64,000 bases of DNA from an uncultured bacterium (GCA_942492175.1 CALODR010000009.1:353850-417849); one strand, 5' to 3'; counted from the stretch's first letter, positions 6,865 to 22,619 are shown. Translations and numbers: made by a program. The notes: a model not told the origin generated them from the letters alone.

Positions 6865-9168
6865 CTATTTTATAAGTTTAGGAAGGTTTATGTTCATTTT
6901 TTTAGGCATTCTGCTAAGATTGAAATCCACTCTTGTTTTGTTTGTCCCGGTTTTATAGTCCGAAAGTATAATTATTGTAAACGCATTGACCATAGTGGAT
7001 GTATTCATAGTGAAATTTACCAGGCCCCAAATGTTTTTGTTCTTCAGTGATCCGCTTTCTCTTCCCGCTTTGATCTCTGTATCATATTTGAACCCCATGC
7101 CCTTAAGTTCAGATATCAAATATTTGAATACTTCCAATTTCGGACTGTCATATTCCAGTAATGCATTACAGAGATTTGATTGTGGTGTACAATCATCACA
7201 TTTTATTACCCTTGGGTTTTTACCTTTTGGGATAATTGTTTTAAATGTTCCATTGAGCTCTCCTGATATGGCAGATGTGGTTTTGATAACATGAGGAGTT
7301 TCTGACAATAATCCTTTTCCACCGAGCAATTTAAAGAGGCTAAAATATTTTTTCTTTTTTGCTATATCTATGGCTGTATCTCCATTATTGTTCTTGGCGT
7401 TTTGTAAAGCCCCCATTTTTATCAATTTTTCCGCGAGTTGAGGCTGATCATATTCAATTGCTATCATAAGTGGTGTCCAGCCGAATTTATTGCCTAAATT
7501 TATATTAACGCCGGATTTTAATAAAATAGCTGCTATCTCAGGATGGTTATATCTGAGAGCAAGAAGCAGTGGAGTCCAGCCTTCAGCAGTCACATCGTCC
7601 AGGTTAAGTTTTTTCCTTTTTATTATTGATATTGCGGCTGCCGGCATATTGTATCTAACGGCCAGGTGGAGGGTTGACCATCCGTCCTTTGTGAATCCAT
7701 TAACGGTTGCACCTTTTTCTAACAGGAGTAATGCTGCATCAGGCTGATCATATCTTAAAGCTACCATAAGAGGGGTCCATCCATATCTTGTTACTTTGTC
7801 AAGCCCTTTGCCTTTCCTGATTATGATATCAGCAATTTCGGGGAACTTATATTCAAGTGCAAAATGGAGCGGAGTGTTCCCGTCTCTTTCAGTAGCGAGT
7901 GTATCAGCTCCGCTCTCAATGAGTTTCTTAGCACACTTTCCGGCACCGTTTCTCAATGCAAAAAGGAGCGGCGTCCATCCGTTTTTGTTGGAGGCGTTAA
8001 TGTCTTTATCTTTTTCTATCATCTTTTCGGCGAGTTTGTTTTTCCCATAACGGAGAGCATACATTAGGGGGGTCCAGTTCTCATTATCTTTGACATTTAT
8101 CTCAGCGCCCTTTCTATACAATGAATCAGCTAACTCCTCATTCCGGTAGCAGAGGGCCATCATCAGTGGTGTCCATTTATTATCTTTAGGTTTATTTATT
8201 TTACACCCTTTCTCAAGGAGCATATCCAATAATTCCATATCACAACCGTTCCGGAGGGCCATGAAGAGATTGTTCCATCCGCCGGAAATTTCTCCTGTAA
8301 CATCAATACCTTTATTTATTAAAAGTTTTGCCGGTTCTATCATATTATATCTTGTGGCAAACATCAGATGGTCCCATCCGCTTTTAGTTTTAATGGAGAT
8401 ATCGGGATCCATACTTATAAGAAATTTTGCAATCTCTTCATTTTTAAATTCCAGAGATGTCATCAATAATGTTTGACCGTTTTCCCATATTTTATTCAGG
8501 ATATCTCCTTTTTTTAGAAATTTTTCCAGAGATACCTTGTCTCCGTTTTCTACTGCTTTGAGTGCATTGTATTCGTTGCTGTATTGCCCCTTCGCAGAGG
8601 GTTGATATATGGGGATAAGAATTTTCCCTCTTGTTTTTTCGAGATAATCTCTCGGGCTGTTGCTGTTTATAAGACCTTTTAATACAGTATTGGAAGTGAA
8701 ATTAAGTTTTTTAAAATTTGTATCAATATGTATTTTATATGAATAATTTTCAAGACTTTCTTTAATAATAGTGATCTTGATATTGCCAAGATAGTTCAGG
8801 TCGGATTTGTTAACGTAGAATTTCTTGTCTATCTTATAATACTTTTTCCCGAAGAAGATATCTTCTATCTTGAACAGTCCGTCAACATTTTGTATCAGGA
8901 AATATTTCCCATTTCCGGCAGTGATCGTATCTGACTTCTTTTCCCCGTCTTTTCGTATTCTGATACTAATTTCCTCCCCCGGTCCGACAAGCTTTTTCTT
9001 CTTGAGAAAGGAGATACTTCCAAATGAGATAGAATTAAAATTTGAATTTTTAAATTTCCCGTTCTGTAATTCACTGACAAACGGGCCTTCATATTTTTTT
9101 ACTTCCGAGAATAGACCAATTGATAAAAATAGAGCAAAACATACAGAAATTGTTATTATTTTCTTCAA
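6865..9168 (-). CDS. secreted ankyrin-repeat protein (>=12 ANK repeats) with ~290-aa N-terminal domain of unknown function
   Basis: Repeated 33-aa units 'GWTPLMxALRYxxxxxAxxLLxKGAxxN'; N-terminal signal peptide 'MKKIITISVCFALFLSIGLFS'. Confidence 0.85.
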   Translation of the reverse strand: MKKIITISVCFALFLSIGLFSEVKKYEGPFVSELQNGKFKNSNFNSISFGSISFLKKKKLVGPGEEISIRIRKDGEKKSDTITAGNGKYFLIQNVDGLFKIEDIFFGKKYYKIDKKFYVNKSDLNYLGNIKITIIKESLENYSYKIHIDTNFKKLNFTSNTVLKGLINSNSPRDYLEKTRGKILIPIYQPSAKGQYSNEYNALKAVENGDKVSLEKFLKKGDILNKIWENGQTLLMTSLEFKNEEIAKFLISMDPDISIKTKSGWDHLMFATRYNMIEPAKLLINKGIDVTGEISGGWNNLFMALRNGCDMELLDMLLEKGCKINKPKDNKWTPLMMALCYRNEELADSLYRKGAEINVKDNENWTPLMYALRYGKNKLAEKMIEKDKDINASNKNGWTPLLFALRNGAGKCAKKLIESGADTLATERDGNTPLHFALEYKFPEIADIIIRKGKGLDKVTRYGWTPLMVALRYDQPDAALLLLEKGATVNGFTKDGWSTLHLAVRYNMPAAAISIIKRKKLNLDDVTAEGWTPLLLALRYNHPEIAAILLKSGVNINLGNKFGWTPLMIAIEYDQPQLAEKLIKMGALQNAKNNNGDTAIDIAKKKKYFSLFKLLGGKGLLSETPHVIKTTSAISGELNGTFKTIIPKGKNPRVIKCDDCTPQSNLCNALLEYDSPKLEVFKYLISELKGMGFKYDTEIKAGRESGSLKNKNIWGLVNFTMNTSTMVNAFTIIILSDYKTGTNKTRVDFNLSRMPKKMNINLPKLIK

Positions 9169-9354
9169 AATACCCCCCCTCCGCGGTTTTAAAAATCCGG
9201 GATAGAATTATTTACATTAAACCAAATCATACTGAATTTCAATATAAAGTTAAGGTTAAAATTTATTATCCCGAAAGATATGTTTTGTTAAGCCAAATTC
9301 AATACTATATTTAACTGCAATAATAATTTTGACTTTCAGAATCTGTTTATATCT

Positions 9355-10530
9355 TTATTTCAGCAAAATCCCTTTCAGACCGACAATTACGGATGGTGAG
9401 GAAGTTTTAAGAACGCGAAAAACAACTTTCCCTTTCTCTCTTCCGGGTACGGAAGTTTCAAATTCTCTCTTCTCTCCTTTTTTAACATCTCTGAACAATA
9501 ACTGGTCGACCATATTGTCATTAACCAGTACCTGAAGAATGATGTAATCCGAGTTATCTTTATATTCGACCGTACCCTTGATCAGAAGCATTTCAGATCC
9601 TGAAAAGATCCCCTCTTTTCTGATGGGAATGTTTTTCCCGCCCAGCCCGGTTACCTTGTTAAGTGTTATCTCTGCTTTTGCAATTATTATTTTGATCTCA
9701 TTAATACTGCTCTCACCGGTTACTTTGTCGAAAGAATCAAAAGATCTGACTCTCCAGTAAGTCCACCTGTTTCTCTTAAGCCCGTCCCAGATCTCTTTTC
9801 CCGGGGTGAAAGTGAGGCCCCCTCTGACATCATTCCAGACAAGAGAAGAGCTGTTGTTTAGAAGATCAAAAAGTGAGTTGGAAAAAGCGATCTGGTATCT
9901 TGCCGCACCTCCTCTTGGGACTGCCCATGAGAATTCGGGTATCTCATCCTCTTTTGCTACAAATCCATCTGGGGGTGTTAAGGTCTCCATGCTCTTCTCA
10001 AATGGGAGCACGTAGTATCTCAGTGTCGGAAACACAAGTTCGGTAGCCGGCCTGGTAAGCCGGAACGAGACAGTGTGTAAACCCGGTTCAATAGTGGGAA
10101 GCGGGCTTGCCTTGTCCAGAGTAATTTCCTTAACTTCACCCTGGCTTGATAACTCATTTATAAGGCCGAATACCGATCCGTCATATAACCAGTGCCCTGT
10201 GATAACCCCGGTCCCCTTCATTTTTAATTTTAATACCGGTTTAAGCTGATCCGAATTTCTGGGGACGACCATATAATATTTCCCGTTATCGAACTTGAGC
10301 TCAGCCAGATCGAGAATAACCTTATCCGTCAGTCCGAAGACCTTAACCATGGTTTCGAATGATTTTGTACTTTCTCCGCCTTCATCAACAGCAATGATCT
10401 TAAAATCTCCTGTCTGAGTGTAAGTGTGAGATATGGTATGACCTCCGATTACAACTGTTCCGTCACCGAAGTTCCATAAAATGGTATCTCCATTAAAATT
10501 GTAAGCAGTAACGGTAACCGGTTCTCCTAT
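9355..10530. repeat. ~1.2 kb direct repeat copy 1 (3' part of PKD paralog A), near-identical to 11151-12326
   Basis: Encoded proteins are 100% identical over ~250 aa and >95% over the remainder. Shadow ORFs 9806-10015 and 11605-11814 encode identical 69-aa peptides. Confidence 0.85.
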
Positions 10531-11148
10531 ATTGACCTCGGCAGTCGAGATCTGTATGAACCTGTCGTCCGGTGAGACTGTTACTACTGTTGAAATGGTC
10601 TCGTGTTTGATGTCAAGTTCTCTTACATTTACAGTATAAGTCCCCGGTGTCTGATATCTGTGTGTCTGGATATGACCTCCGTTCAAAACAGAACCGTCAC
10701 CAAAGTTCCAATATATTGTGGGGTTAAGAAAATGAAGTGCCTGGAGATATACCAGCTGATCAACCTTGGGAGTTGAAGGTGTTGCCGTAACCGCTCTTCT
10801 CGGTGCAATAGTAATATTTTTTGTGACGTTATATGCAGTAAAAACAAATCCGCATGACGGGGTCCACATGGCAACACCATGGGTATACCTTATTGTATAT
10901 GTACCCGGTAGATCAAATGAGTGGCTCTGCCAGCCATGATCCAGATCATCCGGGTATATTATAGTTGTGCCGTCACCGAAATTCCAGGTGGATGTCCCTC
11001 TGGCCGAGTCATGACAACTCTTGTTGAAACCTATTTTGTCACCTACAAAATAAGGCCCGTTCCAGTTAACTACAATTTGTGCATTTAACGATTGCACTAA
11101 AACTAAAGAAAATAAACATATGAATGGTATCAGATATATCTTCTTCAT
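9355..11148 (-). CDS. secreted PKD-repeat protein, paralog A (3 PKD domains plus conserved C-terminal module)
   Basis: Signal peptide; repeated 'WNFGDGT' PKD signature; residues ~207-597 are near-identical to paralog B. Confidence 0.8.
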   Translation of the reverse strand: MKKIYLIPFICLFSLVLVQSLNAQIVVNWNGPYFVGDKIGFNKSCHDSARGTSTWNFGDGTTIIYPDDLDHGWQSHSFDLPGTYTIRYTHGVAMWTPSCGFVFTAYNVTKNITIAPRRAVTATPSTPKVDQLVYLQALHFLNPTIYWNFGDGSVLNGGHIQTHRYQTPGTYTVNVRELDIKHETISTVVTVSPDDRFIQISTAEVNIGEPVTVTAYNFNGDTILWNFGDGTVVIGGHTISHTYTQTGDFKIIAVDEGGESTKSFETMVKVFGLTDKVILDLAELKFDNGKYYMVVPRNSDQLKPVLKLKMKGTGVITGHWLYDGSVFGLINELSSQGEVKEITLDKASPLPTIEPGLHTVSFRLTRPATELVFPTLRYYVLPFEKSMETLTPPDGFVAKEDEIPEFSWAVPRGGAARYQIAFSNSLFDLLNNSSSLVWNDVRGGLTFTPGKEIWDGLKRNRWTYWRVRSFDSFDKVTGESSINEIKIIIAKAEITLNKVTGLGGKNIPIRKEGIFSGSEMLLIKGTVEYKDNSDYIILQVLVNDNMVDQLLFRDVKKGEKREFETSVPGREKGKVVFRVLKTSSPSVIVGLKGILLK

Positions 11149-11150
11149 TT

Positions 11151-12326
11151 TTATCTCCGTAGTATTAAACCCTTTATTCCTACTATAACTGAAGGTGAGG
11201 AGGTTTTAAGAACGCGAAAAACAACTTTCCCTTTCTCTCTTCCGGGTACGGAAGTTTCAAATTCCCTCTTCTCTCCTTTTTTAACATCTCTGAACAATAA
11301 CTGGTCGACCATATTGTCATTAACCAGTACCTGAAGAATGATGTAATCCGAGTTATCTTTATATTCGACCGTACCATTGACCAGGAGTATTTCGGATCCT
11401 GAAAAGATACCCTCTTTTCTAATCGGGATATTTTTCCCCTCCAGTCCGGTCACCTTGTTAATCGTTATCTCTGCTTTTGCAATGATGATCTTGATCTCAT
11501 TGATACCGCTCTCACCTGTTACTTTGTCGAAAGAATCAAAAGATCTGACTCTCCAGTAAGTCCACCTGTTTCTCTTAAGCCCGTCCCATATCGCTTTTCC
11601 GGGGGTGAAAGTGAGTCCCCCTCTGACATCATTCCAGACAAGAGAAGAGCTGTTGTTTAGGAGATCAAAAAGTGAGTTGGAAAAAGCGATCTGGTATCTT
11701 GCCGCACCTCCTCTTGGGACTGCCCATGAGAATTCGGGTATCTCATCCTCTTTTGCTACAAATCCATCTGGGGGTGTTAAGGTCTCCATGCTCTTCTCAA
11801 ATGGGAGCACGTAGTATCTCAGTGTCGGAAACACAAGTTCGGTAGCCGGCCTGGTAAGCCGGAACGAGACAGTGTGTAAACCCGGTTCAATAGTGGGAAG
11901 CGGGCTTGCCTTGTCCAGAGTAATTTCCTTAACTTCACCCTGGCTTGATAACTCATTTATAAGGCCGAATACCGATCCGTCATATAACCAGTGCCCTGTG
12001 ATAACCCCGGTCCCCTTCATTTTTAATTTTAATACCGGTTTAAGCTGATCCGAATTTCTGGGGACGACCATATAATATTTCCCGTTATCGAACTTGAGCT
12101 CAGCCAGATCGAGAATAACCTTATCCGTCAGTCCGAAGACCTTAACCATGGTTTCGAATGATTTTGTACTTTCTCCGCCTTCATCAACAGCAATGATCTT
12201 AAAATCTCCTGTCTGAGTGTAAGTGTGAGATATGGTATGACCTCCGATTACAACTGTTCCATCACCGAAGTTCCATAAAATGGTATCTCCATTAAAATTG
12301 AAAGCGGTGACTGTAACCGGGGCTCC
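11151..12326. repeat. ~1.2 kb direct repeat copy 2 (3' part of PKD paralog B)
   Basis: See copy 1. Confidence 0.85.
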
Positions 12327-12962
12327 GATCGGTGTCTCTGATGTTGAAATTTGAATGAACCTGTCATCGGGAGATATAGTTACTGTTGCGTATATGGTCT
12401 CATGTTTTACATCCAGTTCTCTTGCCGTAATTGTGTACACTCCGGTTGACTGATACCTGTGGGTTTGAGTAAGACTTCCATTAAGTACAGTTCCGTCCCC
12501 GAAGTCCCAATAAACTGTGGTTCCCGTAAAATTCAGGGCCTGGATGTAGACAAGCTGATCAACCTTCGCGTTGGAGGGATAAGCTGTGACAGCCCTTTTT
12601 GGGTCAATAGTAATTCTGTATATAACGGTAAATGCATTTCCTGACCAGCTTCCATCATGACATATGGGAGTTGAAGAGGCAACACCATGGGTATACCTCA
12701 CTACATATGTCCCCGGTAGTGAATATGAGTGATACTGCCAGCCGTGATCATTGTCATCCAGATATGTGTAGGATGTACCGTCACCGAAATCCCAGGTGGA
12801 TGTTCCCCTGCTGGAATCATGACAGATTTTATTGAATCCGATTGTATCACCAACGTAATAGGGATCACTTTTATTAACTACAATTCCGGTTGGGAAAGAC
12901 TGAGCTTGAATTGAAACAGTAGTAAATATAGCAACTAATATTAATAAGTATGTCTTTTTCAT
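11151..12962 (-). CDS. secreted PKD-repeat protein, paralog B (tandem duplicate of A)
   Basis: Signal peptide; 'WDFGDGT/WNFGDGT' PKD motifs. The stop lies 2 nt from the start of paralog A. Confidence 0.8.
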   Translation of the reverse strand: MKKTYLLILVAIFTTVSIQAQSFPTGIVVNKSDPYYVGDTIGFNKICHDSSRGTSTWDFGDGTSYTYLDDNDHGWQYHSYSLPGTYVVRYTHGVASSTPICHDGSWSGNAFTVIYRITIDPKRAVTAYPSNAKVDQLVYIQALNFTGTTVYWDFGDGTVLNGSLTQTHRYQSTGVYTITARELDVKHETIYATVTISPDDRFIQISTSETPIGAPVTVTAFNFNGDTILWNFGDGTVVIGGHTISHTYTQTGDFKIIAVDEGGESTKSFETMVKVFGLTDKVILDLAELKFDNGKYYMVVPRNSDQLKPVLKLKMKGTGVITGHWLYDGSVFGLINELSSQGEVKEITLDKASPLPTIEPGLHTVSFRLTRPATELVFPTLRYYVLPFEKSMETLTPPDGFVAKEDEIPEFSWAVPRGGAARYQIAFSNSLFDLLNNSSSLVWNDVRGGLTFTPGKAIWDGLKRNRWTYWRVRSFDSFDKVTGESGINEIKIIIAKAEITINKVTGLEGKNIPIRKEGIFSGSEILLVNGTVEYKDNSDYIILQVLVNDNMVDQLLFRDVKKGEKREFETSVPGREKGKVVFRVLKTSSPSVIVGIKGLILRR

Positions 12963-13003
12963 GTTTTATCTCCGTAGTATAAAGCCCTTTTCATCTCAGT
13001 CTT

Positions 13004-14908
13004 TTAGAAAGCTATGTCTGCTTTCAGGTAAACTGAAGTGGAATCATTCGTCATTCCACTATTCTCATCTTTTTTATATGTCCCTTTCAAAGAGATTGAT
13101 GGTGTGATCTTATTTTTGAATAGTTTAGCCATGAAAAAATTAAGGCTGACGTCTGCAGAGAAGGTTTTTGAATCCGAATAAACGCTTTCACTGCTGTAAT
13201 ATGATGAAAAAATGGAAAGTGTGAAGATGTCGGGGATGAACTTAAGTTCTGAACTCAGGGTAGCATTAAGCATTTTTGATGTGGTGTCATCCTGATTGTC
13301 GGTCTTTGTATATGATGCAGACGGGGAAAGGGTAAGAAATTTTCCGATCGAAAATGACATTGAAAGGTTTGCATTCAGGTTGGAAGTGAAATTTTCAGAT
13401 TCGATCTTTCCGATTCCGAGTGATATAGAGTTGCTTCCCGAATAGTACCTGAGGTTAGTACCATAAGAGTTAGTGTTCATAGCGGTACCAGAGCTCTGGA
13501 GGCCTGAAGACTCATCATAGTTCAGATTGTTCCTTCCTAAATTTGCACTGAGGCTGAAATGATTTCCAATTGTCCAGTTAATATCGGTCTTAATCTCTTT
13601 TGTCCTTTCCGTGTTCCATTCTGTACTATTCAGATAGTTTTTTTCATCCCGGTAATTGACATTCCAGGTTATTTTTGTCAGGTTCAGCCCAATTGCGGTG
13701 TTAAGCCCTTCTCTATCGTTCAGCATCATCTGGTTTGCAATAGAGTAATAATTCGTACCTATTTTTTTATAATTTCCGTTTGCAGAGATCTTTCCCTTGT
13801 AAAAATTAAATCCGGCCTGCCAGGCACTGTCTTTTTCTTTTGATATATCATCACTGGTCTCACCTTTGCCGAAATTACTCTGTGCATATTCACCTTTCAG
13901 CGTAAGTGCACTTTTCATGAGTTTAAGTTCACCCCAGATCGAAATAATGTCACCTTCCCTGACAGGATCATCATTCGAATATAAGGTTTTACTATCGGTC
14001 TTATCTTTACCTGTTATGAATGAGGTTTTTATTGAAAATATCTGCCCTGATTTAAATCCTGTCGCTGCACCGAAAAGGTTTGCATCAGGTATCGGTATCC
14101 CGAATCCCTCAAAACCTGTTTTTTGCTGAGAGTTTACTGAAAACAGGTTGAAGTACAATTTATTTCCGGTCATTTCATAGTTTAACCCTCTTCTACTGAG
14201 CCATGAAGTTGAAAAATCTGAATGATTTATCGAAACATCACCAGCTTCAAATTTATGATTGCCTTTTTTGAACCTGACAATCATATTGGAAAGATTTATG
14301 TGGCTTTCATCAGGCCCGATCTGATCCAGGTAATTAAATGTGGATTCAAAATCGAACTGATATTCGTTGTCATAAATATTCCTGTATAATCTTATATTCC
14401 CGTTGTTTGAAAATGCTTTGCCCGGATAATCAGAATTGTCATGCAGTTTGGTGGTTGAAGAGTATGAGGGGCTTACTTTTAAAAAGGGATTCTTTGCTTT
14501 GGGCGTTGCTCCCCCTGATTCTGTATTTAAAAAATAGATCTCAGGTGATTCTTTCTTTGTAAAATTTGTGATAGTGAAGACCGGTGATAGGGGATTTTCC
14601 TTTCTTCTGTCTTTTTCAAAGATAAAGTATTCAATGTTTTTCCCGTAGAGGTTCTCAAGAGGCAATCTGTAGTAGATCTCCCCGTTTGCACTGACCTCCA
14701 TTTTCCTTACCTGATAATGATTCAGTCCCTCAGTTTTGTAGTAAATATAAAAATCATCTCCCCGGCTGAGTGTTGAAACTTTAATAGTTATTGCTTTTTC
14801 ACCCTTCTCAATTATCGGGAGGTAGTTGGAAAAGCCAAAGGATTTGCTTTGAACCGTCAAACTTAATAATAAAATCAGGATTAAAACACAGATAGGTTTT
14901 ATTCTCAT
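13004..14908 (-). CDS. outer-membrane beta-barrel protein (634 aa), family unknown
   Basis: Signal peptide 'MRIKPICVLILILLLSLTVQS'; long Ser/Thr/Asn/Gly/Tyr-rich amphipathic strands; C-terminal '...YLKADIAF' terminal Phe. Confidence 0.55.
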   Translation of the reverse strand: MRIKPICVLILILLLSLTVQSKSFGFSNYLPIIEKGEKAITIKVSTLSRGDDFYIYYKTEGLNHYQVRKMEVSANGEIYYRLPLENLYGKNIEYFIFEKDRRKENPLSPVFTITNFTKKESPEIYFLNTESGGATPKAKNPFLKVSPSYSSTTKLHDNSDYPGKAFSNNGNIRLYRNIYDNEYQFDFESTFNYLDQIGPDESHINLSNMIVRFKKGNHKFEAGDVSINHSDFSTSWLSRRGLNYEMTGNKLYFNLFSVNSQQKTGFEGFGIPIPDANLFGAATGFKSGQIFSIKTSFITGKDKTDSKTLYSNDDPVREGDIISIWGELKLMKSALTLKGEYAQSNFGKGETSDDISKEKDSAWQAGFNFYKGKISANGNYKKIGTNYYSIANQMMLNDREGLNTAIGLNLTKITWNVNYRDEKNYLNSTEWNTERTKEIKTDINWTIGNHFSLSANLGRNNLNYDESSGLQSSGTAMNTNSYGTNLRYYSGSNSISLGIGKIESENFTSNLNANLSMSFSIGKFLTLSPSASYTKTDNQDDTTSKMLNATLSSELKFIPDIFTLSIFSSYYSSESVYSDSKTFSADVSLNFFMAKLFKNKITPSISLKGTYKKDENSGMTNDSTSVYLKADIAF

Positions 14909-14984
14909 TTTTTCACCCCTTCCTTCTTATTTATAAAAAAAAAATAAAAATATTACAATACAAAATAAATGTCAGGTCATAATT

Positions 14985-17807
14985 TTACAGGATCTTAAAG
15001 AACAAGATATCAGAAACAGTTGATACGGATCCGGTTGCGTCAACTATTCTTACCTGCCAGTATATCCAGTCTCCAGATTTGTATTTTGCAGTTTCAAGGT
15101 CAAAAGATGTGTCTTCCCCTGTCTCTATCCAATTTATGCTATTGTCACTCTGGAGTTGGAATGGGATTTCGGATACGGCAATTTCGAACCTGTCCCCCTG
15201 CCTTTTCTTTTTCCATTTTAGTTTTATTATATCTTTACGTGTCAATTTTGATCCGGATAAAGGGGATATTGTTTTTATGGACCCGCTGTTGGTCACAAAA
15301 TATCTTAAAGTAGGGATCTTGCCCTCAAAATTATAATTTTCAAAATCTAAACTTAATGAATGAATTCCTGTTTCGAGTACAGGAAGTTTCGGGACTTCGC
15401 TGGCTTTTATGGTAATAAGGTTTCTTCCTGCCAGTAGTTTTGTGAATAAACCAAAAACCTTCCCGTCAAAAAGCCATTTACCGGTGATAATTCCTTTCCC
15501 GTTTATTTTCAGCTTTAACTGATAACCGGGGGAAAAGCTGTTAAGCGGAACGATCCTGTAGTATTTTCCATTGCTGAAAGTGAGCTCCAGAGCATTTATT
15601 CTGAAATCCTCCGTCTGCTCCCTGACCTTTACAGTTTTTGTGAACAATTTTTTTCCTTGGCCTTCATAGTCAACAGCTGTGATCTTATATGTACCTGTTT
15701 TGTTGAAAGTCTGTGTAATGGTTTTGGAGAGGATTTTGGGCGGGCTGCCGTCTCCCACATCCCATTTGACTGCATTACCATTAAAATTTTGTGCAGTCAG
15801 TTTAAGCGGTTCACCGATGAGGACGGTCTCTTCCCCGAGAATAAGTGATCTTGTGTCAGGTTGAACATTTATTGTTTTTACAACCGGCGGATAAAGTCCG
15901 GACCTGTCAGTTAAAATAATTTGTTTTACTCCGGGAGTGTTAAAGACTATTTCGCCCGGATTTTGTCCGGATACGGTTTTCCCCCCCTGAAATTTCCACT
16001 CATAATTCCCGCCTTGTGAGTTTTTCAACTGCATTGAAAACGGAACTCCGGCAATAATAGTTTTTCCTAATTCCAGCACACGGGAATCCCTGACAACATT
16101 TATGCTGAGTTCTATTTCCCTGGATCCTTTCCCGTCAAAATCTATAGCGGTTATTCTATAATTTCCGGGCATTTTATATTTATGAGTAATTCTTTTTGAG
16201 CCTCTCTGGTCCGAGCCGTCTCCAAAGATCCATCTTACTCTGTTGTCAGCGAAATTTCTTGCTTCAAATTCTGTTTCCGTGTCTGCGATAATAGTTCCCT
16301 TGCGGGATACTATTTCCCTGTTATCCCTTAAAACATTTATCCTCACCTTCACAGGAATTTTTGAAGTGCCGTCAAAATCAAATACCTGAACAACAAAATT
16401 TCCCGGTCTCATATACGTATAATTTATTTGATGCGAGCCATTCCTGATTGTTCCGTCTCCCATATCCCATTTAACTGAAGGAGAATTCAAATTGCGTCCT
16501 ATAATTTTTAATTCAGTTTTTTCAAAAATTTGACTATTTTCAACTTTGAGTTCTCTGTTATCGTTTATTGTAATAAATTCTCTTACGGGCGACTGCCCCT
16601 GTATATCAGCAATAACCTCAACTCTTCCAGGATCCTTGAATTTATGCTGGATCTCCAGTGGGGAATTGTTTGCGGGGTTTTCGTTTCCTATCTTCCAGGT
16701 TACAGTATTTGCAGAACTATTCTGAAGCTTAATCATTACCTGCTGCCCGACAAGTGCTGCCGGCGGCTGAATCAGGACCTTTCTTTTATCCTGATTTACA
16801 GATACCATCACCGTTACAAATGGAGAAGATGATCCGGCTTCCCTTGCTTTAATATTGAAGTTTCCCATGTTTGTAAAAGTGTGTTTTTCTGTCTGTCCGC
16901 CGGTTTTTTTATTGTTTTGGCCGAAATCCCACTCAATTGATCCTGAAGTAAAATTGACTGCATTAAATGTAACTTCTTCATAAAGTGAGGGGTTTTGCGG
17001 AGATATATTTATAGATCTGTTGTCAGGTGAAACGTTTACGGTTTCTTCAATAAAGCTGTTCGGACCTATTGCCATGTCTGTTACCCTGACCTTAAAGTTA
17101 CCCTGAGATGAAAATATATGAGTCATTGATTGTCCGCCGTTCTGTATTGCTCCGTCCCCGAAATCCCATTTAAGGTTTGCGGAAAAATTTACCGCCTGGA
17201 AAGCTATTTCCCTCCCTGCCATCGGAGATGAGGGTTGATAATTTACAGAACGGTTATCTGGTGCTATTGATATTGTGCAGGTTATAACTGAAGATGAATT
17301 TCCAGCGTAATCTTTTACTTTTATTGTATAATTACCTGGATTTGAATAAGTATGCTCCCTGCTCTGCTGACCGTTATTTACTGTTCCGTCTCCGAAATCC
17401 CAGTTCAGAGTATTTTCAACAAAATAATTTGTGTTAAATAAAACAGGATTTCCGGCCATAAAAGAGCTACCACTAGGTTCAACAGTTCTCCTTTCTGTAA
17501 CATTAATTATTGATGTCAACAGAGTCGGTTGGCCGCCTGCAGGGGTTTTTTCACAAGTTACTTCATAATTTCCCGGTTCTTTATAAATATGGTTTGCTTG
17601 AGATTGGGCCCCCTCAACAGGTGGAGTTCCGTCCCCGAAATTCCATTTGTAGTTAAATTGAGATGAAGGAGGTCCCCCTCCCTGAATTCCAAAAGTCACC
17701 TGTGTACCCGGGAACACCTGGTTAGGTTGGTTGTGGATGTTCTCACTATTTAATTGGTTGAATAAAAGCAGGAATACTAACGATACAAAAATGAGGTTTT
17801 TTTTCAT
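14985..17807 (-). CDS. large secreted PKD-repeat protein C (~8 PKD domains plus the C-terminal module shared with A and B)
   Basis: Many 'WDFGDGT/WNFGDG' motifs. The start is probably the internal ATG at 17807 (MKKNLIFVSLVFLLLF) preceded by GGAG, not 17858. C-terminal ~210 aa are homologous to A/B ('LTFSNGKYYRIVP' vs 'LKFDNGKYYMVVP'; 'GKWLFDGKVFGL' vs 'GHWLYDGSVFGL'; 'PTLRYFV' vs 'PTLRYYV'). Confidence 0.8.
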   Translation of the reverse strand: MKKNLIFVSLVFLLLFNQLNSENIHNQPNQVFPGTQVTFGIQGGGPPSSQFNYKWNFGDGTPPVEGAQSQANHIYKEPGNYEVTCEKTPAGGQPTLLTSIINVTERRTVEPSGSSFMAGNPVLFNTNYFVENTLNWDFGDGTVNNGQQSREHTYSNPGNYTIKVKDYAGNSSSVITCTISIAPDNRSVNYQPSSPMAGREIAFQAVNFSANLKWDFGDGAIQNGGQSMTHIFSSQGNFKVRVTDMAIGPNSFIEETVNVSPDNRSINISPQNPSLYEEVTFNAVNFTSGSIEWDFGQNNKKTGGQTEKHTFTNMGNFNIKAREAGSSSPFVTVMVSVNQDKRKVLIQPPAALVGQQVMIKLQNSSANTVTWKIGNENPANNSPLEIQHKFKDPGRVEVIADIQGQSPVREFITINDNRELKVENSQIFEKTELKIIGRNLNSPSVKWDMGDGTIRNGSHQINYTYMRPGNFVVQVFDFDGTSKIPVKVRINVLRDNREIVSRKGTIIADTETEFEARNFADNRVRWIFGDGSDQRGSKRITHKYKMPGNYRITAIDFDGKGSREIELSINVVRDSRVLELGKTIIAGVPFSMQLKNSQGGNYEWKFQGGKTVSGQNPGEIVFNTPGVKQIILTDRSGLYPPVVKTINVQPDTRSLILGEETVLIGEPLKLTAQNFNGNAVKWDVGDGSPPKILSKTITQTFNKTGTYKITAVDYEGQGKKLFTKTVKVREQTEDFRINALELTFSNGKYYRIVPLNSFSPGYQLKLKINGKGIITGKWLFDGKVFGLFTKLLAGRNLITIKASEVPKLPVLETGIHSLSLDFENYNFEGKIPTLRYFVTNSGSIKTISPLSGSKLTRKDIIKLKWKKKRQGDRFEIAVSEIPFQLQSDNSINWIETGEDTSFDLETAKYKSGDWIYWQVRIVDATGSVSTVSDILFFKIL

Positions 17808-17854
17808 TGTAAAATTCTCCTTAAAGTTTATATAAGAAAATTGTTGAATATATC

Positions 17855-20641
17855 TCATTTTTTTATAAAAAACTTATAAAGGTTAAAATTTGCCCATATC
17901 ATGGGATGAGAAAATGACAACTTTCTTCCGTTTCCCAGTTCAATGATTCTTTTTCTGAAAGATATTTTAACATTCCTTAATATAGTAGCGAGGTCATCCG
18001 CCCGCCCTTTTTCATTCTTGAGCTCTGTATAGAAAGGGACAATGATTTCTGAACTAAACTCATTGACAGGCCATAAACTCGCTATCATCGATTCTGCTCC
18101 GGAATTATAAAGTGTTGCTGTAATACCGCTTATCAACTGTTCCCCCATGAGATGATTTTCCAGGCTTCCGCAGGTGCTTAAAAAGATCAGGTCGCAATTC
18201 AATCTCAGTCTGGAAATATCGGAAACAAAATATAATGGATCGTTTTCCTTCCGGGCGGAGAACAGAAACATTGAATACCATGGGTATTTCCTGTTACTAA
18301 CAAAATGTGTTGCCAGATGAATTATTCTTGAAACTGTTGCAGTTTTATTGAAATTTTCCTTTGTGAATTCTTTCCCGGTATAAAATCTCCCCCTCTTATC
18401 TCCCCAGATATTTTTTATTTTTCTGATCTCTTCCTTTGATGAAGGGAGTAGGGTGAAAATAGAGTTACCCTTTTCAGAAAAATCAGAAAGCCATTTGTTC
18501 TTAGGGTCTATTACGGGAAATCCGAAGGCACTTATATCATATTTTTTCCTTCCTTTTTTTTTGTTATTTTTAAGGTGGAAAATGGAGAACAGGTATTCGA
18601 TGGAATATCTGTCAATAAGGAATTGAGTGTTCTCATATTCAGAAAAGATCACATTTTTTATTCTATAACTTCTCTTTTTTTTTGTTATTAAAGCCTCAAA
18701 CGGGATCTTGAAAAGGGCATCGTCAGGAATAATTATGAGCTTTTCCTTATCTTTATGAAACTCCAGAACATCATGAAGAAGGATATTATACAATTCAGCT
18801 GATTTCTCCTGGTCATATTTGATCCGCAGGAAGTCCACTTCGTTATTTTCATATCTTTGAATTGGGGATAATAGGGATCCTATAAGATTTTTTATATATT
18901 TGCTCCCCTTTTCTAGTTTTTTATATCCGGCGGATTTGTGATCGATAACAAAAGCATACGTATTATCTTCGAGCACGATGAACCTAACCACAAGAGTATC
19001 CCTGTCAAGTATATTCCTGATTTTTGTCAGATCCAGTTCAGAGATCAGAAATCTTTTGTATCTTTTCGGGAACTCAAGAATAAGGTCTTCAAGCTCTATA
19101 AGTTCTGTTTTCAGTGAATCTACCATTTTTTTATAAGATATGATCCTGGATTCTTTAATATGTCCTTTTAAAATTTTCTCTTCAGCTGCCCTGACCTCAT
19201 TTTCGACTCTGGTTTTTTCTTTTTCTATACTTTGTATGCGGCGGTCCCCGTCAGATATTCTCCTGAACATATAAGGATTCTTAACCTCTCCTGAGTAAAA
19301 AGCCATTCTGAGATATTTCAGTTCATTTGTCTTATCAAACATTCTGAAGTTAAACCTTGCTATCCTTGAATAAATGAAGGTGATCTCCTCCCTGTATGGA
19401 TAATGTCTGAGGTGATTCAATTCAGAAAAAAAATAGTTAAGGCTCCTGAATGTTTTTTCATAATATTCACCTGCAACTTCCGGTTTCCCGATTTTTTCAT
19501 TCAGCATACCTCTGAGAAAATAGTAGAAAAAATATCCGCGGTAGAACGGAGTGTAAATCTTACTCATTTTATTCAGATAAGCCATCGCCTCTTCCGGGTT
19601 GTTATAATGAATAGCCCTTTTTATAAACTCGTAGAGAACCGGCATAAGGTGTTCGTAAGATTCATTGTTGATGCCGAAATCCGCAGTGTTCTTCAGAATA
19701 GTTAGTCCGCTGATATCCTGATCATTATAAAAAAATAATTTAGATCTCATAAAATAGGCATTTAGAATAAGTTCCGGGAAATTTTTTTTCTCTCCAATTG
19801 CGATGCTTCTTCTGTTGTATTGTTCAGCTTTGTTGTAATTCGCTTCAGACATGAAAACTTCTGTATAGATATTAAATATCCACATTTTCAGATGTTCATT
19901 CCTGAATTTTTCAGCATAATTCAGTGATCTTCCGAGAAATTTAAGAGCAAGCTTGTTTTTCCCCAGATGGAAAAAAGCTTTTGCTATCCTGTTATAAATA
20001 TACCCGCTGCTTGAAGCTTCCATTTTTTCTGAATATTTTATCGCTTCAAAAAAAAACTGCAGTGATCTCAGAAAATTGTTTTCATGAAGGTGATAATCTC
20101 CGAGGGTAATAAATAATTGCTTCAGTGAGTCATTGTCTTTATATTTCTTTCTTAATTCTGCCTGGTTCTCAAGATATAATATCTCCCTTTTGATGTCACC
20201 GTTTCTCCTGTGAAATTCATGCAGTTTTATAAGTGATTCGAGTCTATCCCTGTCATTTCCGGAGTTTGCCAGTGCTTTCTTTAGATAATTCTCATTGTTT
20301 TTATCTGATATTTTTGCCAATTGAAGGTATATATAGTAATAAACTTTTTTGAATTTTTTTTTTCTCAAAATCTTTTTAAAAAAATCAGATGTTTTCTGAA
20401 CGTTTTTCAATATTTTTGAATTCCGGCCTACCATAAGGAGTTTGTGTTTTAAAATTTCGACACTTTGATCAGGTTCGAATTCTGAGATTTCAACCATAAG
20501 TTTCTCCTGATCTACTTCTGTAAATTTTTTTGTACTTAATTGTGCAGGACAAATTAAAATCAAGGAAAACATGAAGAAGAGGAGAGGGGGAATATATCTC
20601 ATTTCATATAAAAGTTTAATTAATAAGAAAAAAAAATTCAA
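17855..20641 (-). CDS. secreted TPR-repeat / CHAT-domain (clan CD, caspase-like) peptidase
   Basis: N-terminal hydrophobic signal, TPR-like helical repeats (residues ~100-420), coiled coil, C-terminal CHAT with the His ('IIHLATHF') and Cys ('IFLSTCGSLE') dyad regions. Confidence 0.8.
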   Translation of the reverse strand: MNFFFLLIKLLYEMRYIPPLLFFMFSLILICPAQLSTKKFTEVDQEKLMVEISEFEPDQSVEILKHKLLMVGRNSKILKNVQKTSDFFKKILRKKKFKKVYYYIYLQLAKISDKNNENYLKKALANSGNDRDRLESLIKLHEFHRRNGDIKREILYLENQAELRKKYKDNDSLKQLFITLGDYHLHENNFLRSLQFFFEAIKYSEKMEASSSGYIYNRIAKAFFHLGKNKLALKFLGRSLNYAEKFRNEHLKMWIFNIYTEVFMSEANYNKAEQYNRRSIAIGEKKNFPELILNAYFMRSKLFFYNDQDISGLTILKNTADFGINNESYEHLMPVLYEFIKRAIHYNNPEEAMAYLNKMSKIYTPFYRGYFFYYFLRGMLNEKIGKPEVAGEYYEKTFRSLNYFFSELNHLRHYPYREEITFIYSRIARFNFRMFDKTNELKYLRMAFYSGEVKNPYMFRRISDGDRRIQSIEKEKTRVENEVRAAEEKILKGHIKESRIISYKKMVDSLKTELIELEDLILEFPKRYKRFLISELDLTKIRNILDRDTLVVRFIVLEDNTYAFVIDHKSAGYKKLEKGSKYIKNLIGSLLSPIQRYENNEVDFLRIKYDQEKSAELYNILLHDVLEFHKDKEKLIIIPDDALFKIPFEALITKKKRSYRIKNVIFSEYENTQFLIDRYSIEYLFSIFHLKNNKKKGRKKYDISAFGFPVIDPKNKWLSDFSEKGNSIFTLLPSSKEEIRKIKNIWGDKRGRFYTGKEFTKENFNKTATVSRIIHLATHFVSNRKYPWYSMFLFSARKENDPLYFVSDISRLRLNCDLIFLSTCGSLENHLMGEQLISGITATLYNSGAESMIASLWPVNEFSSEIIVPFYTELKNEKGRADDLATILRNVKISFRKRIIELGNGRKLSFSHPMIWANFNLYKFFIKK

Positions 20642-20701
20642 TTTATTGATAATAATTATCCTTTCCTTTAAAATTAAAGTGGTTTATTTAAAGGCCGGGA
20701 G

Positions 20702-21262
20702 ATGAAAGAGAGCCATACAATTATCAATCTACTCAAGTCAAATGACTTGCCAGCCGAAACCATGCTTGTCAAAAAATTTAATTCAAGACTATTTACATAC
20801 TTCCGCTCCAGGATAAAAGGTGAGGATAATTATGAGGATCTTGTCCAGGAGGTATTTGTATCGTTTTTTAATGCTGTCAAAAAAGATAAAATACACAGCG
20901 ATGATTTTATCGCTCCTTTTATATTCGGTATTGCCAAAAGAGTTGTATACAATTACTTTTATAAGAAAAAAAAAGGAGAAAATATAAAAAAGAAAGCGGA
21001 AAATGAACACAATCCCTTTGTTGATTTTTCCGGAGAGCAGAACCTTTGGAATGAGAGGATGATCAATATCATAAATGAACATATAAAAAATTTGAAAGAT
21101 ATTGACAGGGTAATCCTGAAAGAATTTTTTTTTAACGATAACACAATCAGCGAAATATCCGTATTAACAAACAGGTCGAAGCATTATGTTAGTGTGAGAA
21201 AAGAAAGAGCAATAAAAAAAATAAAAAGTGAGATATTGAATGCAGAAGGTGTATTTAAGTAA
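20702..21262 (+). CDS. ECF-type RNA polymerase sigma factor (sigma-70 family regions 2 and 4)
   Basis: 'DLVQEVFVSFF' region 2.x-like and C-terminal HTH 'ISEISVLTNRSKHYVSVRKERAIKKIK'; 186 aa. Confidence 0.8.
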   Translation: MKESHTIINLLKSNDLPAETMLVKKFNSRLFTYFRSRIKGEDNYEDLVQEVFVSFFNAVKKDKIHSDDFIAPFIFGIAKRVVYNYFYKKKKGENIKKKAENEHNPFVDFSGEQNLWNERMINIINEHIKNLKDIDRVILKEFFFNDNTISEISVLTNRSKHYVSVRKERAIKKIKSEILNAEGVFK

Positions 21263-21273
21263 TAGAGGAAAAG

Positions 21274-21963
21274 ATGAAGTGCAAAGAATTTGAGTCTCTC
21301 ATAGGAAATTATCTTGAAGGGACAATAGAGGACAATAAAAGGGAAATATTTGAAGAGCATTATTTTGTTTGCGATGAATGTTATGCTTCATTGGTTTTAA
21401 TTGAGAACCTTCGTGAAAAAAATGTTAGGATAGTACCGGGAAAGCAAAGAAATTACTCGTTCACCTTCAGGCCGGCACTATTCTTCGCTTCATTGATCCT
21501 GGTAGTATTTACATCTCTCTTTGTTACAGATTTTAACAACAGAAAAGAAAAATTATTGGATATCTCGGATTTTTCTGCCCCCCTTTACGTGAAAGGAGAG
21601 AACAGAGGTGATGATTTTTCGGATATGTTCCATGAAGCTATGGATAATTATCAGAATAGTAACTATAAAAAAGCTTATATCATAATAGCATCTATAGAAA
21701 ACGGGAATCCGAAGACATGGTTTTTCAGGGGAATTCTTGCATTGCTTAACGGAAAAAATAAGGATGCACTCATACATTTTGATAAAATAATAGTTGAAAT
21801 GTCTCCATCTTACTATGACGAAGCCATATACTATCGGGGGATCTGCTACTTGAGACTGAACCGGAAACATGATGCAGTAAAGCAATTTAAAATGCTTGAG
21901 TCTATGTTCAGCCCTCTCCGTCAGAAAGCTGCTGAAATGGTAAAAAGAATCTTAAGCGTCTGA
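21274..21963 (+). CDS. anti-sigma factor (zf-HC2 type) with single TM and C-terminal TPR-like domain
   Basis: N-terminal 'CKEF...EEHYFVCDECY' putative zinc finger; TM 'PALFFASLILVVFTSLFV'; starts 12 nt downstream of the ECF sigma gene. Confidence 0.65.
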   Translation: MKCKEFESLIGNYLEGTIEDNKREIFEEHYFVCDECYASLVLIENLREKNVRIVPGKQRNYSFTFRPALFFASLILVVFTSLFVTDFNNRKEKLLDISDFSAPLYVKGENRGDDFSDMFHEAMDNYQNSNYKKAYIIIASIENGNPKTWFFRGILALLNGKNKDALIHFDKIIVEMSPSYYDEAIYYRGICYLRLNRKHDAVKQFKMLESMFSPLRQKAAEMVKRILSV

Positions 21964-22007: not shown

Positions 22008-22619
22008 ATGGGTCACAAAAAAAAAGAAAAAGACAATAAGATTCATATTCTCACCATTTATATATTCTTAATTATATTTACATTTATACCTGAATCTGTT
22101 TTATCAAAAAATTCCGGTTTTCTTCTAAACAAAAAGAGGTCATATATCAAAGTTAAAGCAAGTGTTTCTTCACTATATAGTTTTAAAGCGGTACTTGAAT
22201 CATTTGATACAGATATCCGATATGATGAGAAGTCTGATATTGTTCATAGAGCATATCTCCAGTTTGATTTTATTTCACTAAAAACCGGTATAAAAAAAAG
22301 AGATAAAAAAATGCTTAAATGGATTGAGTACGACCGTTTCCCTAAAGGTAGCTTTATAATGGTATCAGATTCAAAAAATGAAGGGGAACGACACCTAAAA
22401 GGGAATTTAAGGATACATGGAGTTGTAAGAGAAGTGAGTATTCCATATACATTATATAAGGATGGGGAAGAACTGGTAGTTAACGGGAGTTATACTTTTG
22501 ATTACAGAATATTTTCTCTCAAGCTCATTAGATTCCTTTTCCTCAAGGTCAAACCTGAATTAGAAATAAGCTTTCATTTTGAAGGCGAGTTGTTGCAGGA
22601 AAATCAAATTCCCGATTAA
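22008..22619 (+). CDS. YceI-like periplasmic protein (hypothetical)
   Basis: N-terminal TM/signal; size and the pattern 'LESFDTDIRYDEKSD...FDFISLKTGIKKRDKKM...' resemble the YceI family. Confidence 0.45.
   Translation: MGHKKKEKDNKIHILTIYIFLIIFTFIPESVLSKNSGFLLNKKRSYIKVKASVSSLYSFKAVLESFDTDIRYDEKSDIVHRAYLQFDFISLKTGIKKRDKKMLKWIEYDRFPKGSFIMVSDSKNEGERHLKGNLRIHGVVREVSIPYTLYKDGEELVVNGSYTFDYRIFSLKLIRFLFLKVKPELEISFHFEGELLQENQIPD

Follow-up and report, generated by a model that had tools for sequence, protein, structure and literature searches.

In a 64,000-nt stretch of DNA from an uncultured bacterium (GCA_942492175.1 CALODR010000009.1:353850-417849), which as a whole is called the window here and from whose first letter all positions are counted, we analysed a locus at 6865-21963 that encodes a putative outer-membrane beta-barrel protein, three PKD proteins, a TPR-CHAT peptidase, an ankyrin-repeat protein and a divergent pair of a sigma factor with extracytoplasmic function (ECF) and its anti-sigma factor. 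Going by the names of its homologues, the host can be placed in Candidatus Aminicenantes / Acidobacteriota; the Aminicenantes are abundant uncultured fermenters of sediments and the subsurface. Comparative genomics showed that the barrel and the PKD-A protein with its cognate C-terminal module make up an Aminicenantes-specific two-gene unit, predicted from the sequences to belong to the outer membrane. Content and order of the eight open reading frames (ORFs) are as an earlier note on this DNA had listed them, as judged by ORF calls and by domain matches in Pfam and NCBIfam, and by their signal peptides all exported products are predicted to leave the cytoplasm through Sec. The features are as follows.

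6865-9168, minus strand: secreted ankyrin-repeat protein (Pfam Ank, 224 bits), a lineage-specific passenger and not core
9355-11148, minus strand: PKD-A, core part 2, with signal peptide, three PKD repeats (Pfam PKD) and the C-terminal module
11151-12962, minus strand: PKD-B, tandem paralogue of PKD-A, with a three-domain module at nt 11154-12134
13004-14908, minus strand: 634-aa outer-membrane protein (the barrel), core part 1, with signal peptide, beta-sandwich, linker and predicted barrel
14909-14984, minus strand: spacer between PKD-C and barrel genes, with a promoter-like TTGTAT ... TATAAA pair
14985-17807, minus strand: PKD-C, accessory, with signal peptide, about nine PKD repeats and a two-domain module at nt 14988-15626
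17855-20602, minus strand: secreted TPR-CHAT peptidase (PF12770), accessory, with the CHAT domain at nt 17879-18808
20603-20701, no strand: divergent spacer between CHAT and sigma genes, with back-to-back sigma70-like promoters (consensus matches only)
20702-21262, plus strand: ECF (group IV) sigma factor (TIGR02937, Sigma70_r2)
21274-21963, plus strand: anti-sigma factor with zf-HC2, one transmembrane segment and TPR_2

The TPR-CHAT ORF was first listed as 17855-20641 (928 aa), and its start was revised inward to 20602 as M14 at this position, which opens a signal-peptide-like segment, is most likely the true start because the start position is conserved across loci. The PKD-C ORF reaches 17858, its signal peptide beginning at the ATG at 17807. 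With the CHAT start at 20602 the sigma gene does lie on the opposite strand, as claimed before, but at a spacing of 99 nt and not 60. Order and strand of the six co-directional genes also stand, but their gaps are not all tiny, as 186 nt lie ahead of the ankyrin gene. Scans for Rfam families and tRNAs found nothing.

The barrel and its PKD partner

For the comparison we compiled 37 loci around barrel homologues and five more via exact-protein look-ups, all from Aminicenantes-type metagenome-assembled genomes (MAGs), and mapped the proteins of the window onto them using tblastn, blastp and a hidden Markov model (HMM) of the module. In 32 of 32 informative loci, meaning those with enough downstream DNA, the barrel is directly followed downstream by a PKD-A-type gene whose product has the module with all three domains. 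L004 and L037 resemble the window in having two A-type copies. Among the compared loci the module was found only on direct neighbours of the barrel and always at the extreme C-terminus, and in the window its HMM matches exactly three ORFs, each likewise at the extreme C-terminus. We regard the module as the cognate partner of the barrel.

The barrels separate into two clades. In clade I the locus consists of barrel and PKD-A only, and in clade II a PKD-C-type gene is added directly upstream of the barrel, a position in which C-type proteins occur in this clade only. Ahead of this gene CHAT and the divergent ECF/anti-sigma genes are found in most cases, and some members of the clade have lost CHAT, ECF and PKD-C. 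The association of the ECF/anti-sigma pair with the block of CHAT, PKD-C, barrel and PKD-A is kept down to 42% barrel identity, showing that the cluster is indeed co-conserved in relatives. The ankyrin gene, counted as a cluster member in the earlier note, turned out to be lineage-specific: besides the window, L005 and L045 alone have it. The locus is flanked by syntenic housekeeping genes, namely RecD2, SpoU and radical SAM at one end and, at the other, ADI together with a sulfatase-TPR gene.

The 634-aa barrel protein matches no Pfam or NCBIfam family. A profile search against 1.84 billion representatives gave 382 clusters of relatives at E <= 1e-3, and remote members show sub-threshold SlpA_C and Porin_4 matches. 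AlphaFold2, using a 40-sequence alignment, models the protein (pLDDT 78, pTM 0.57) with a signal peptide, an N-terminal beta-sandwich (aa ~30-115, nt 14564-14821), a disordered linker and a 26-strand barrel at aa 144-634 (nt 13007-14479). The C-terminal residue is a Phe that is invariant in this alignment. As modelled, the protein has the generic features of an outer-membrane beta-barrel, namely a signal peptide, an even number of antiparallel strands and a C-terminal aromatic beta-signal. Its closest structures are MtrB (best TM-score, 0.47) and the ushers (best Foldseek E-values), all with TM-scores below 0.5; FimD for example is matched at E = 2e-8, yet with a TM-score of 0.37. In the remote relatives P0271, P0276 and P0297, Big_5, Big_13 or PKD domains are fused N-terminal to the barrel. 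As some remote relatives carry such fusions, the association of Ig-like domains with this type of barrel seems to be older than the Aminicenantes pair.

The module is shared by all three PKD proteins. Residues 275-488 of PKD-A align to residues 745-957 of PKD-C within a 435-aa alignment (31% identity, E = 1e-51), and the predicted fold is a tandem of FN3/Ig-like beta-sandwiches, three in PKD-A and PKD-B and two in PKD-C, which keeps the first two and misses the third. The PKD-A module (aa 271-597, nt 9358-10338) was modelled as three beta-sandwiches with a pLDDT of 89.8 and a pTM of 0.76. The shared C-terminal module proposed before is thus real, homologous and without a family in Pfam, where nothing relevant was found even at E <= 10, but its size is ~210 aa in PKD-C or ~325 aa in PKD-A and PKD-B and does not range over ~210-390 aa. 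It is also not a known C-terminal domain (CTD) of type IX secretion systems (T9SS), as neither Por_Secre_tail nor a TIGR T9SS CTD is matched, no CTD-like sequence or fold was seen and the predicted fold is FN3/Ig-like. Neither the barrel family nor the module carries an annotation. Among the module-bearing proteins the number of PKD repeats and the protein length vary, the latter from 560 to 1102 aa.

PKD-A and PKD-B share 84% amino acid identity. Within these two genes (window 9355-12962) a block of ~620 nt at gene positions ~680-1300 is 100% identical at the nucleotide level with flanks of 55-99%, which indicates recent gene conversion or a collapse in the MAG assembly. The only apparent exception to the core pair lies in L001/L033 (11927-13940), where a frameshift breaks the PKD-A-type gene in two and the alanine racemase gene next to it is fragmented too, likely an error of the long-read assembly. 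A 293-aa 'module-only' protein was rejected as a separate candidate, as these gene calls are spurious and result from the frameshifted PKD-A-type gene in a long-read MAG. Many MAGs with the locus (L005, L006, L011, L014, L015, L031 and others) are titled 'uncultured Clostridia', 'Victivallales' or 'Chrysiogenia'; probably the record taxonomy is wrong or the contigs are mis-binned.

Genes of the sulfatase family recur beside barrel and PKD-A in L003 (11953-14115), L010, L011, L013 and L037, and are located between barrel and PKD-A in L003 and between the two PKD-A copies in L037. Near the anti-sigma gene, the window (23945-26377, minus strand), L044 and L045 have in syntenic position a sulfatase-TPR gene whose secreted product has 810 aa. 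A YceI-like gene (window 22008-22619, plus strand) starts 44 nt past the anti-sigma gene and is probably not part of the system, because in L003, L044 and L045 this position is taken by ADI, which follows directly.

The CHAT peptidase, the sigma pair and their promoters

PF12770 matches the CHAT domain nearly in full, from position 2 to 286 of the 289 in the profile, with E = 4e-36 and 125.3 bits (cut-off 24). Counted along the 928-aa ORF, its dyad is made up of H779 in the motif HLATH (nt 18305-18307) and C824 in LSTC (nt 18170-18172). HLATH and LSxC are kept without exception in 14 orthologues, and H779/C824 are likewise invariant in 23 wider TPR-CHAT sequences, so both the catalytic His and Cys are present and hold up on alignment. 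The N-termini of all CHAT orthologues are signal-peptide-like. We found CHAT in 16 loci, all belonging to one barrel clade; in each of the 16 PKD-C is located between CHAT and barrel, and CHAT and PKD-C have the same orientation with a gap of <= 50 nt. Wherever the DNA reaches far enough CHAT is accompanied by the ECF/anti-sigma genes (13/13 loci). Neither CHAT nor ECF is present within 7-10 kb in 18 loci, which include a whole barrel clade, and L002 and L010 have a PKD-C-type gene without CHAT within the same distance.

Two TPR-CHAT proteins connected to sigma factors have been described. DdvA is an anti-sigma factor whose fused periplasmic TPR-CHAT has been proposed as a built-in site-1 protease (PMC11506125), and the TPR-CHAT protein Csx29 cleaves Csx30, relieving the inhibition of an ECF-type sigma factor (PMC10028731). 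A CHAT-only profile searched against the PDB sequences found no CHAT-containing chain at E <= 10. Searching PDB chains with the full-length protein or profile had to be discarded, as TPR matches swamped the result and gave no link to DdvA, Csx29 or separase, and the neighbourhoods of the distant TPR-CHAT proteins P0180, P0182 and P0186 were unrelated and uninformative. PADLOC gave no defence-system match for CHAT, sigma, barrel or PKD proteins.

The sigma factor is recognised by TIGR02937 (59.4 bits, cut-off 42.9) and Sigma70_r2 (27.1 bits, cut-off 24), with region 4 staying slightly under its cut-off (20.6 bits against 24.1). Its partner is encoded 11 nt after it and is a protein of 229 aa with zf-HC2 (25.4 bits, cut-off 22.2), one transmembrane segment at aa ~66-86 and a TPR domain (TPR_2) of ~130 aa that is predicted to be periplasmic. 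The HYFxCxxC motif (ZAS, Hx3Cx2C) and the hydrophobic segment are kept in 10 orthologues. Between transmembrane helix and TPR these orthologues also show a strongly conserved juxtamembrane motif, ISxFsPPx[YF]..ExR (aa 101-116, window 21574-21621), which is a candidate recognition or cleavage site. In more distant CHAT-bearing loci, namely L011 (5061-5465, minus strand), L032 (1330-1725, minus strand) and the equivalent region of L012, the ECF sigma gene is directly adjoined at its start by a gene for a secreted protein of 131-134 aa, which the window lacks. An extra gene between sigma and CHAT, considered for the same three loci, was rejected, as it is this small secreted protein upstream of sigma.

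The divergent spacer holds TTGAAT-17-TAAACT on the CHAT side and TTGATA-17-TAAAAT on the sigma side (20646-20674), a back-to-back pair of sigma70-like promoters that is positionally conserved in 8 loci. The earlier note had seen here the classic arrangement of an ECF-controlled regulon, which is unproven as both divergent promoters look sigma70-like. The TTGTAT ... TATAAA pair in the spacer between PKD-C and barrel keeps its position in clade II loci and may be a promoter of its own for the barrel/PKD-A unit. In clade I, an element ~40-110 nt upstream of the barrel start is common to L016, L018, L020-L022, L024, L026, L028, L031 and L038 and consists of TTATAAtAAAAA..TTGAGATA, 8-10 nt, TTGAAa, 15 nt and TGnTAtttT. 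It reads as an extended -10 promoter of the sigma70 type, stronger than the clade II pair, and TGAGATA might be an operator. No intrinsic terminator was found between the genes of the locus, and overall the promoter and terminator scans gave as many hits as the shuffled controls. The six genes are co-directional, but a single transcript of all six, as suggested before, is not established because of the positionally conserved promoter-like pair between PKD-C and barrel, to which the 186-nt gap before the ankyrin gene is added; the genes may form one transcript or several units (CHAT-PKD-C, barrel-PKD-B-PKD-A and ankyrin).

Interpretation of the locus

From gene associations, domain identities and residue conservation, all of them shown here, we tentatively read the locus as two layers, a reading that we hold at somewhat less than even chances: an autonomous surface complex of barrel and PKD protein, and a signalling unit of TPR-CHAT, ZAS anti-sigma and ECF sigma factor that would be a split version of DdvA. 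In the first layer the triple FN3/Ig-like module would dock on the wide barrel or inside it, in the manner of LptE with LptD, MtrA with MtrB or type-B CTD cargo with PorP/SprF. The variable PKD stalk would in this way be kept on the surface of the cell, where it would serve in binding or capture, with sulfated polymers as a possible target given the recurrent sulfatase neighbours. In the second layer, the free periplasmic CHAT would be sensor and site-1 protease at once, taking its cue from the condition of PKD-C or the barrel and cutting the juxtamembrane segment or the TPR domain of the anti-sigma factor, upon which the ECF sigma factor could be released. CHAT would thus be a signalling protease and not a sortase that removes the module, as it tracks the ECF/anti-sigma pair and not the pair of barrel and module.

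Several points weigh against this two-layer reading. Confidence in the barrel model is only moderate (pTM 0.57), the genomes of the CHAT-less loci could carry CHAT elsewhere, and no ECF-type promoter was recognised in the spacers of the locus or its relatives, only sigma70-like hexamers. In all loci that have it CHAT is co-operonic with PKD-C, so that PKD-C may be the substrate and not the signal. Among the PDB sequences no similarity of the CHAT domain to DdvA, Csx29 or separase could be detected, and for this reason the parallel to DdvA is one of architecture only. Docking, cleavage, substrate, signal and localisation are all inferred. A more far-reaching version, which we consider rather unlikely, would have barrel and triple sandwich form a self-contained route for the export or anchoring of folded Ig-like repeat proteins outside Bacteroidota, with the clade II CHAT monitoring it (for example for undocked PKD-C) and firing the ECF sigma factor by cutting the anti-sigma. 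A new surface-display system would then have a dedicated caspase-like circuit for quality control and signalling.

The constant adjacency, shared orientation and short gap of CHAT and PKD-C in 16 of 16 loci could also mean that CHAT matures or turns over PKD-C, releasing its stalk or activating it, and that the ECF/anti-sigma pair regulates the operon in response to an unrelated envelope signal. The lack of the third sandwich, by which PKD-C differs from PKD-A, would fit, and divergent sigma genes beside their target operons are common. Against this, L002 and L010 have PKD-C-type proteins but no CHAT nearby, both divergent promoters are sigma70-like and not ECF-type, and no reason is given why CHAT never occurs without the anti-sigma factor, which makes this explanation a doubtful one.

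With the ECF-regulated polysaccharide utilisation loci (PULs) of Bacteroides as a model, the locus might instead serve nutrient capture, the barrel being an uptake channel, the PKD/FN3 proteins binding glycans, the sulfatases processing sulfated polymers and ECF/anti-sigma together with CHAT sensing the substrate. The sulfatase genes beside barrel and PKD-A in the five loci named above, the sulfatase-TPR gene near the anti-sigma and the sub-threshold Porin_4 and SlpA_C matches of remote barrel relatives point in this direction, but the sulfatase neighbours are not universal, the cluster has no plug, TonB box, SusD or CAZyme (carbohydrate-active enzyme) genes and no binding sites were identified. 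We regard a PUL-like function as improbable, if well worth considering; it describes a physiological role that is partly compatible with the two-layer reading.

The earlier note itself had proposed a T9SS-like system with the module acting as sorting signal, CHAT cleaving it off like PorU and the barrel forming a dedicated translocon or anchor. For such a system one can cite that all components are clustered and, by their predicted signal peptides, Sec-exported, that the CHAT dyad is intact, that the module is C-terminal and conserved, that the block is co-conserved in 16 loci and that a barrel as wide as modelled could pass folded Ig-like domains. The model predicts that CHAT accompanies the pair of barrel and module and that the module is present on diverse cargo, and is not supported because neither holds: 18 loci, among them a whole clade, keep barrel and module-bearing PKD-A without CHAT nearby, L002 and L010 have PKD-C-type proteins without it, and the module is restricted to one type of cargo. 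Moreover CHAT perfectly tracks sigma and anti-sigma (13/13), the consensus at the PKD/module junction was drawn from family-wide homologues including those of CHAT-less loci and is not CHAT-specific, and the module, with a predicted FN3/Ig-like fold, is not CTD-like in sequence or fold. A T9SS-like system of this kind is, in our judgement, quite unlikely. A mere chance adjacency of genes for surface proteins, a peptidase and a sigma pair, for which the variable ankyrin and YceI passengers might be cited, is highly improbable, as order and orientation are kept where barrels are only 42% identical and the flanks differ.

Comparison with known systems

MtrB-MtrA, LptD-LptE and the chaperone-usher barrels FimD/PapC are large barrels with an occupied lumen. 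The predicted barrel resembles them in its strand number (24-26 strands) and in a width sufficient for a folded domain and, as in ushers and LptD, has an N-terminal domain that would be periplasmic, but there is no family-level sequence match and there are no cytochromes, LptE, chaperone or plug domain. The cluster gave no Usher or PapD matches in Pfam, and for MtrB/PioB neither a Pfam match of the barrel nor cytochrome genes were found, the resemblance being limited to strand number and the TM-score of 0.47.

In the T9SS, cargo of type B has a special C-terminal domain and is anchored by an adjacent PorP/SprF-like barrel (PMC9143113), and here too a special domain ends the cargo protein and the cognate outer-membrane barrel is encoded next to it. 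The barrel of the window, however, has 634 aa and ~26 predicted strands without a PorP_SprF match, and the module has two to three domains and 210-325 aa. With PorU and type-A cargo the locus shares a clan-CD peptidase, a C-terminal beta-sandwich on the cargo and the likely outer-membrane location, but the peptidase belongs to PF12770 and not C25 and is dispensable for most members, the module occurs in one protein family and the phylum lies outside Bacteroidota. None of the 19 scanned ORFs of the window is a T9SS component.

On the signalling side, DegS-RseA-sigmaE is a system in which a periplasmic protease senses the status of outer-membrane proteins and makes the site-1 cleavage of a single-pass anti-sigma factor (summarised in PMC10028731). 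DegS is a PDZ serine protease, in contrast to the candidate here, a clan-CD cysteine peptidase tied to one specific barrel/PKD system. Like Craspase, in which TPR-CHAT controls an ECF-type sigma factor by cutting its inhibitor (PMC10028731), the peptidase of the window is proposed to act on an inhibitor, but Craspase is cytoplasmic, RNA-guided and CRISPR-associated, whereas here the protein is predicted to be exported and no Cas genes are present.

The closest parallel in architecture is DdvA. Both systems combine an ECF sigma factor with a single-pass anti-sigma factor that has an N-terminal zinc-finger domain, and a periplasmic TPR-CHAT with conserved His and Cys that is genetically locked to the pair, for which regulated intramembrane proteolysis triggered by the protease is proposed. 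They differ in that here TPR-CHAT is a separate secreted protein encoded divergently and the anti-sigma factor keeps only the ~130-aa TPR without a fused CHAT. The linked genes code for PKD proteins and an outer-membrane barrel and not for CBASS/CRISPR, the host belongs to Aminicenantes while DdvA-like proteins have been reported only in Myxococcota and one Comamonas, and searching PDB sequences with the CHAT-domain profile detected no sequence similarity. Apart from that of DdvS, we found in the literature no ECF group that has CHAT as a neighbour, and no paper on PKD proteins or barrels of Aminicenantes. Of the anti-sigma factors with a linked periplasmic TPR-CHAT only DdvA has been studied, and neither its signal nor its cleavage step is proven. 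If the two-layer reading is true, a natural split of peptidase and anti-sigma would allow the idea of CHAT as a site-1 protease to be tested directly in vitro, and the DdvA design would extend from Myxococcota to a candidate phylum. The barrel and the PKD family with its private module could also show how Aminicenantes build their cell surface or capture polymers.

In summary the locus is not a member of the T9SS (type A or B), chaperone-usher, MtrB or DdvA families, as a defining feature failed in each of them, while it does hold bona fide CHAT, ECF, ZAS and PKD family members. Compared with these known systems, its new variant elements are the split design of TPR-CHAT and anti-sigma factor and the cognate pair of barrel and cargo.

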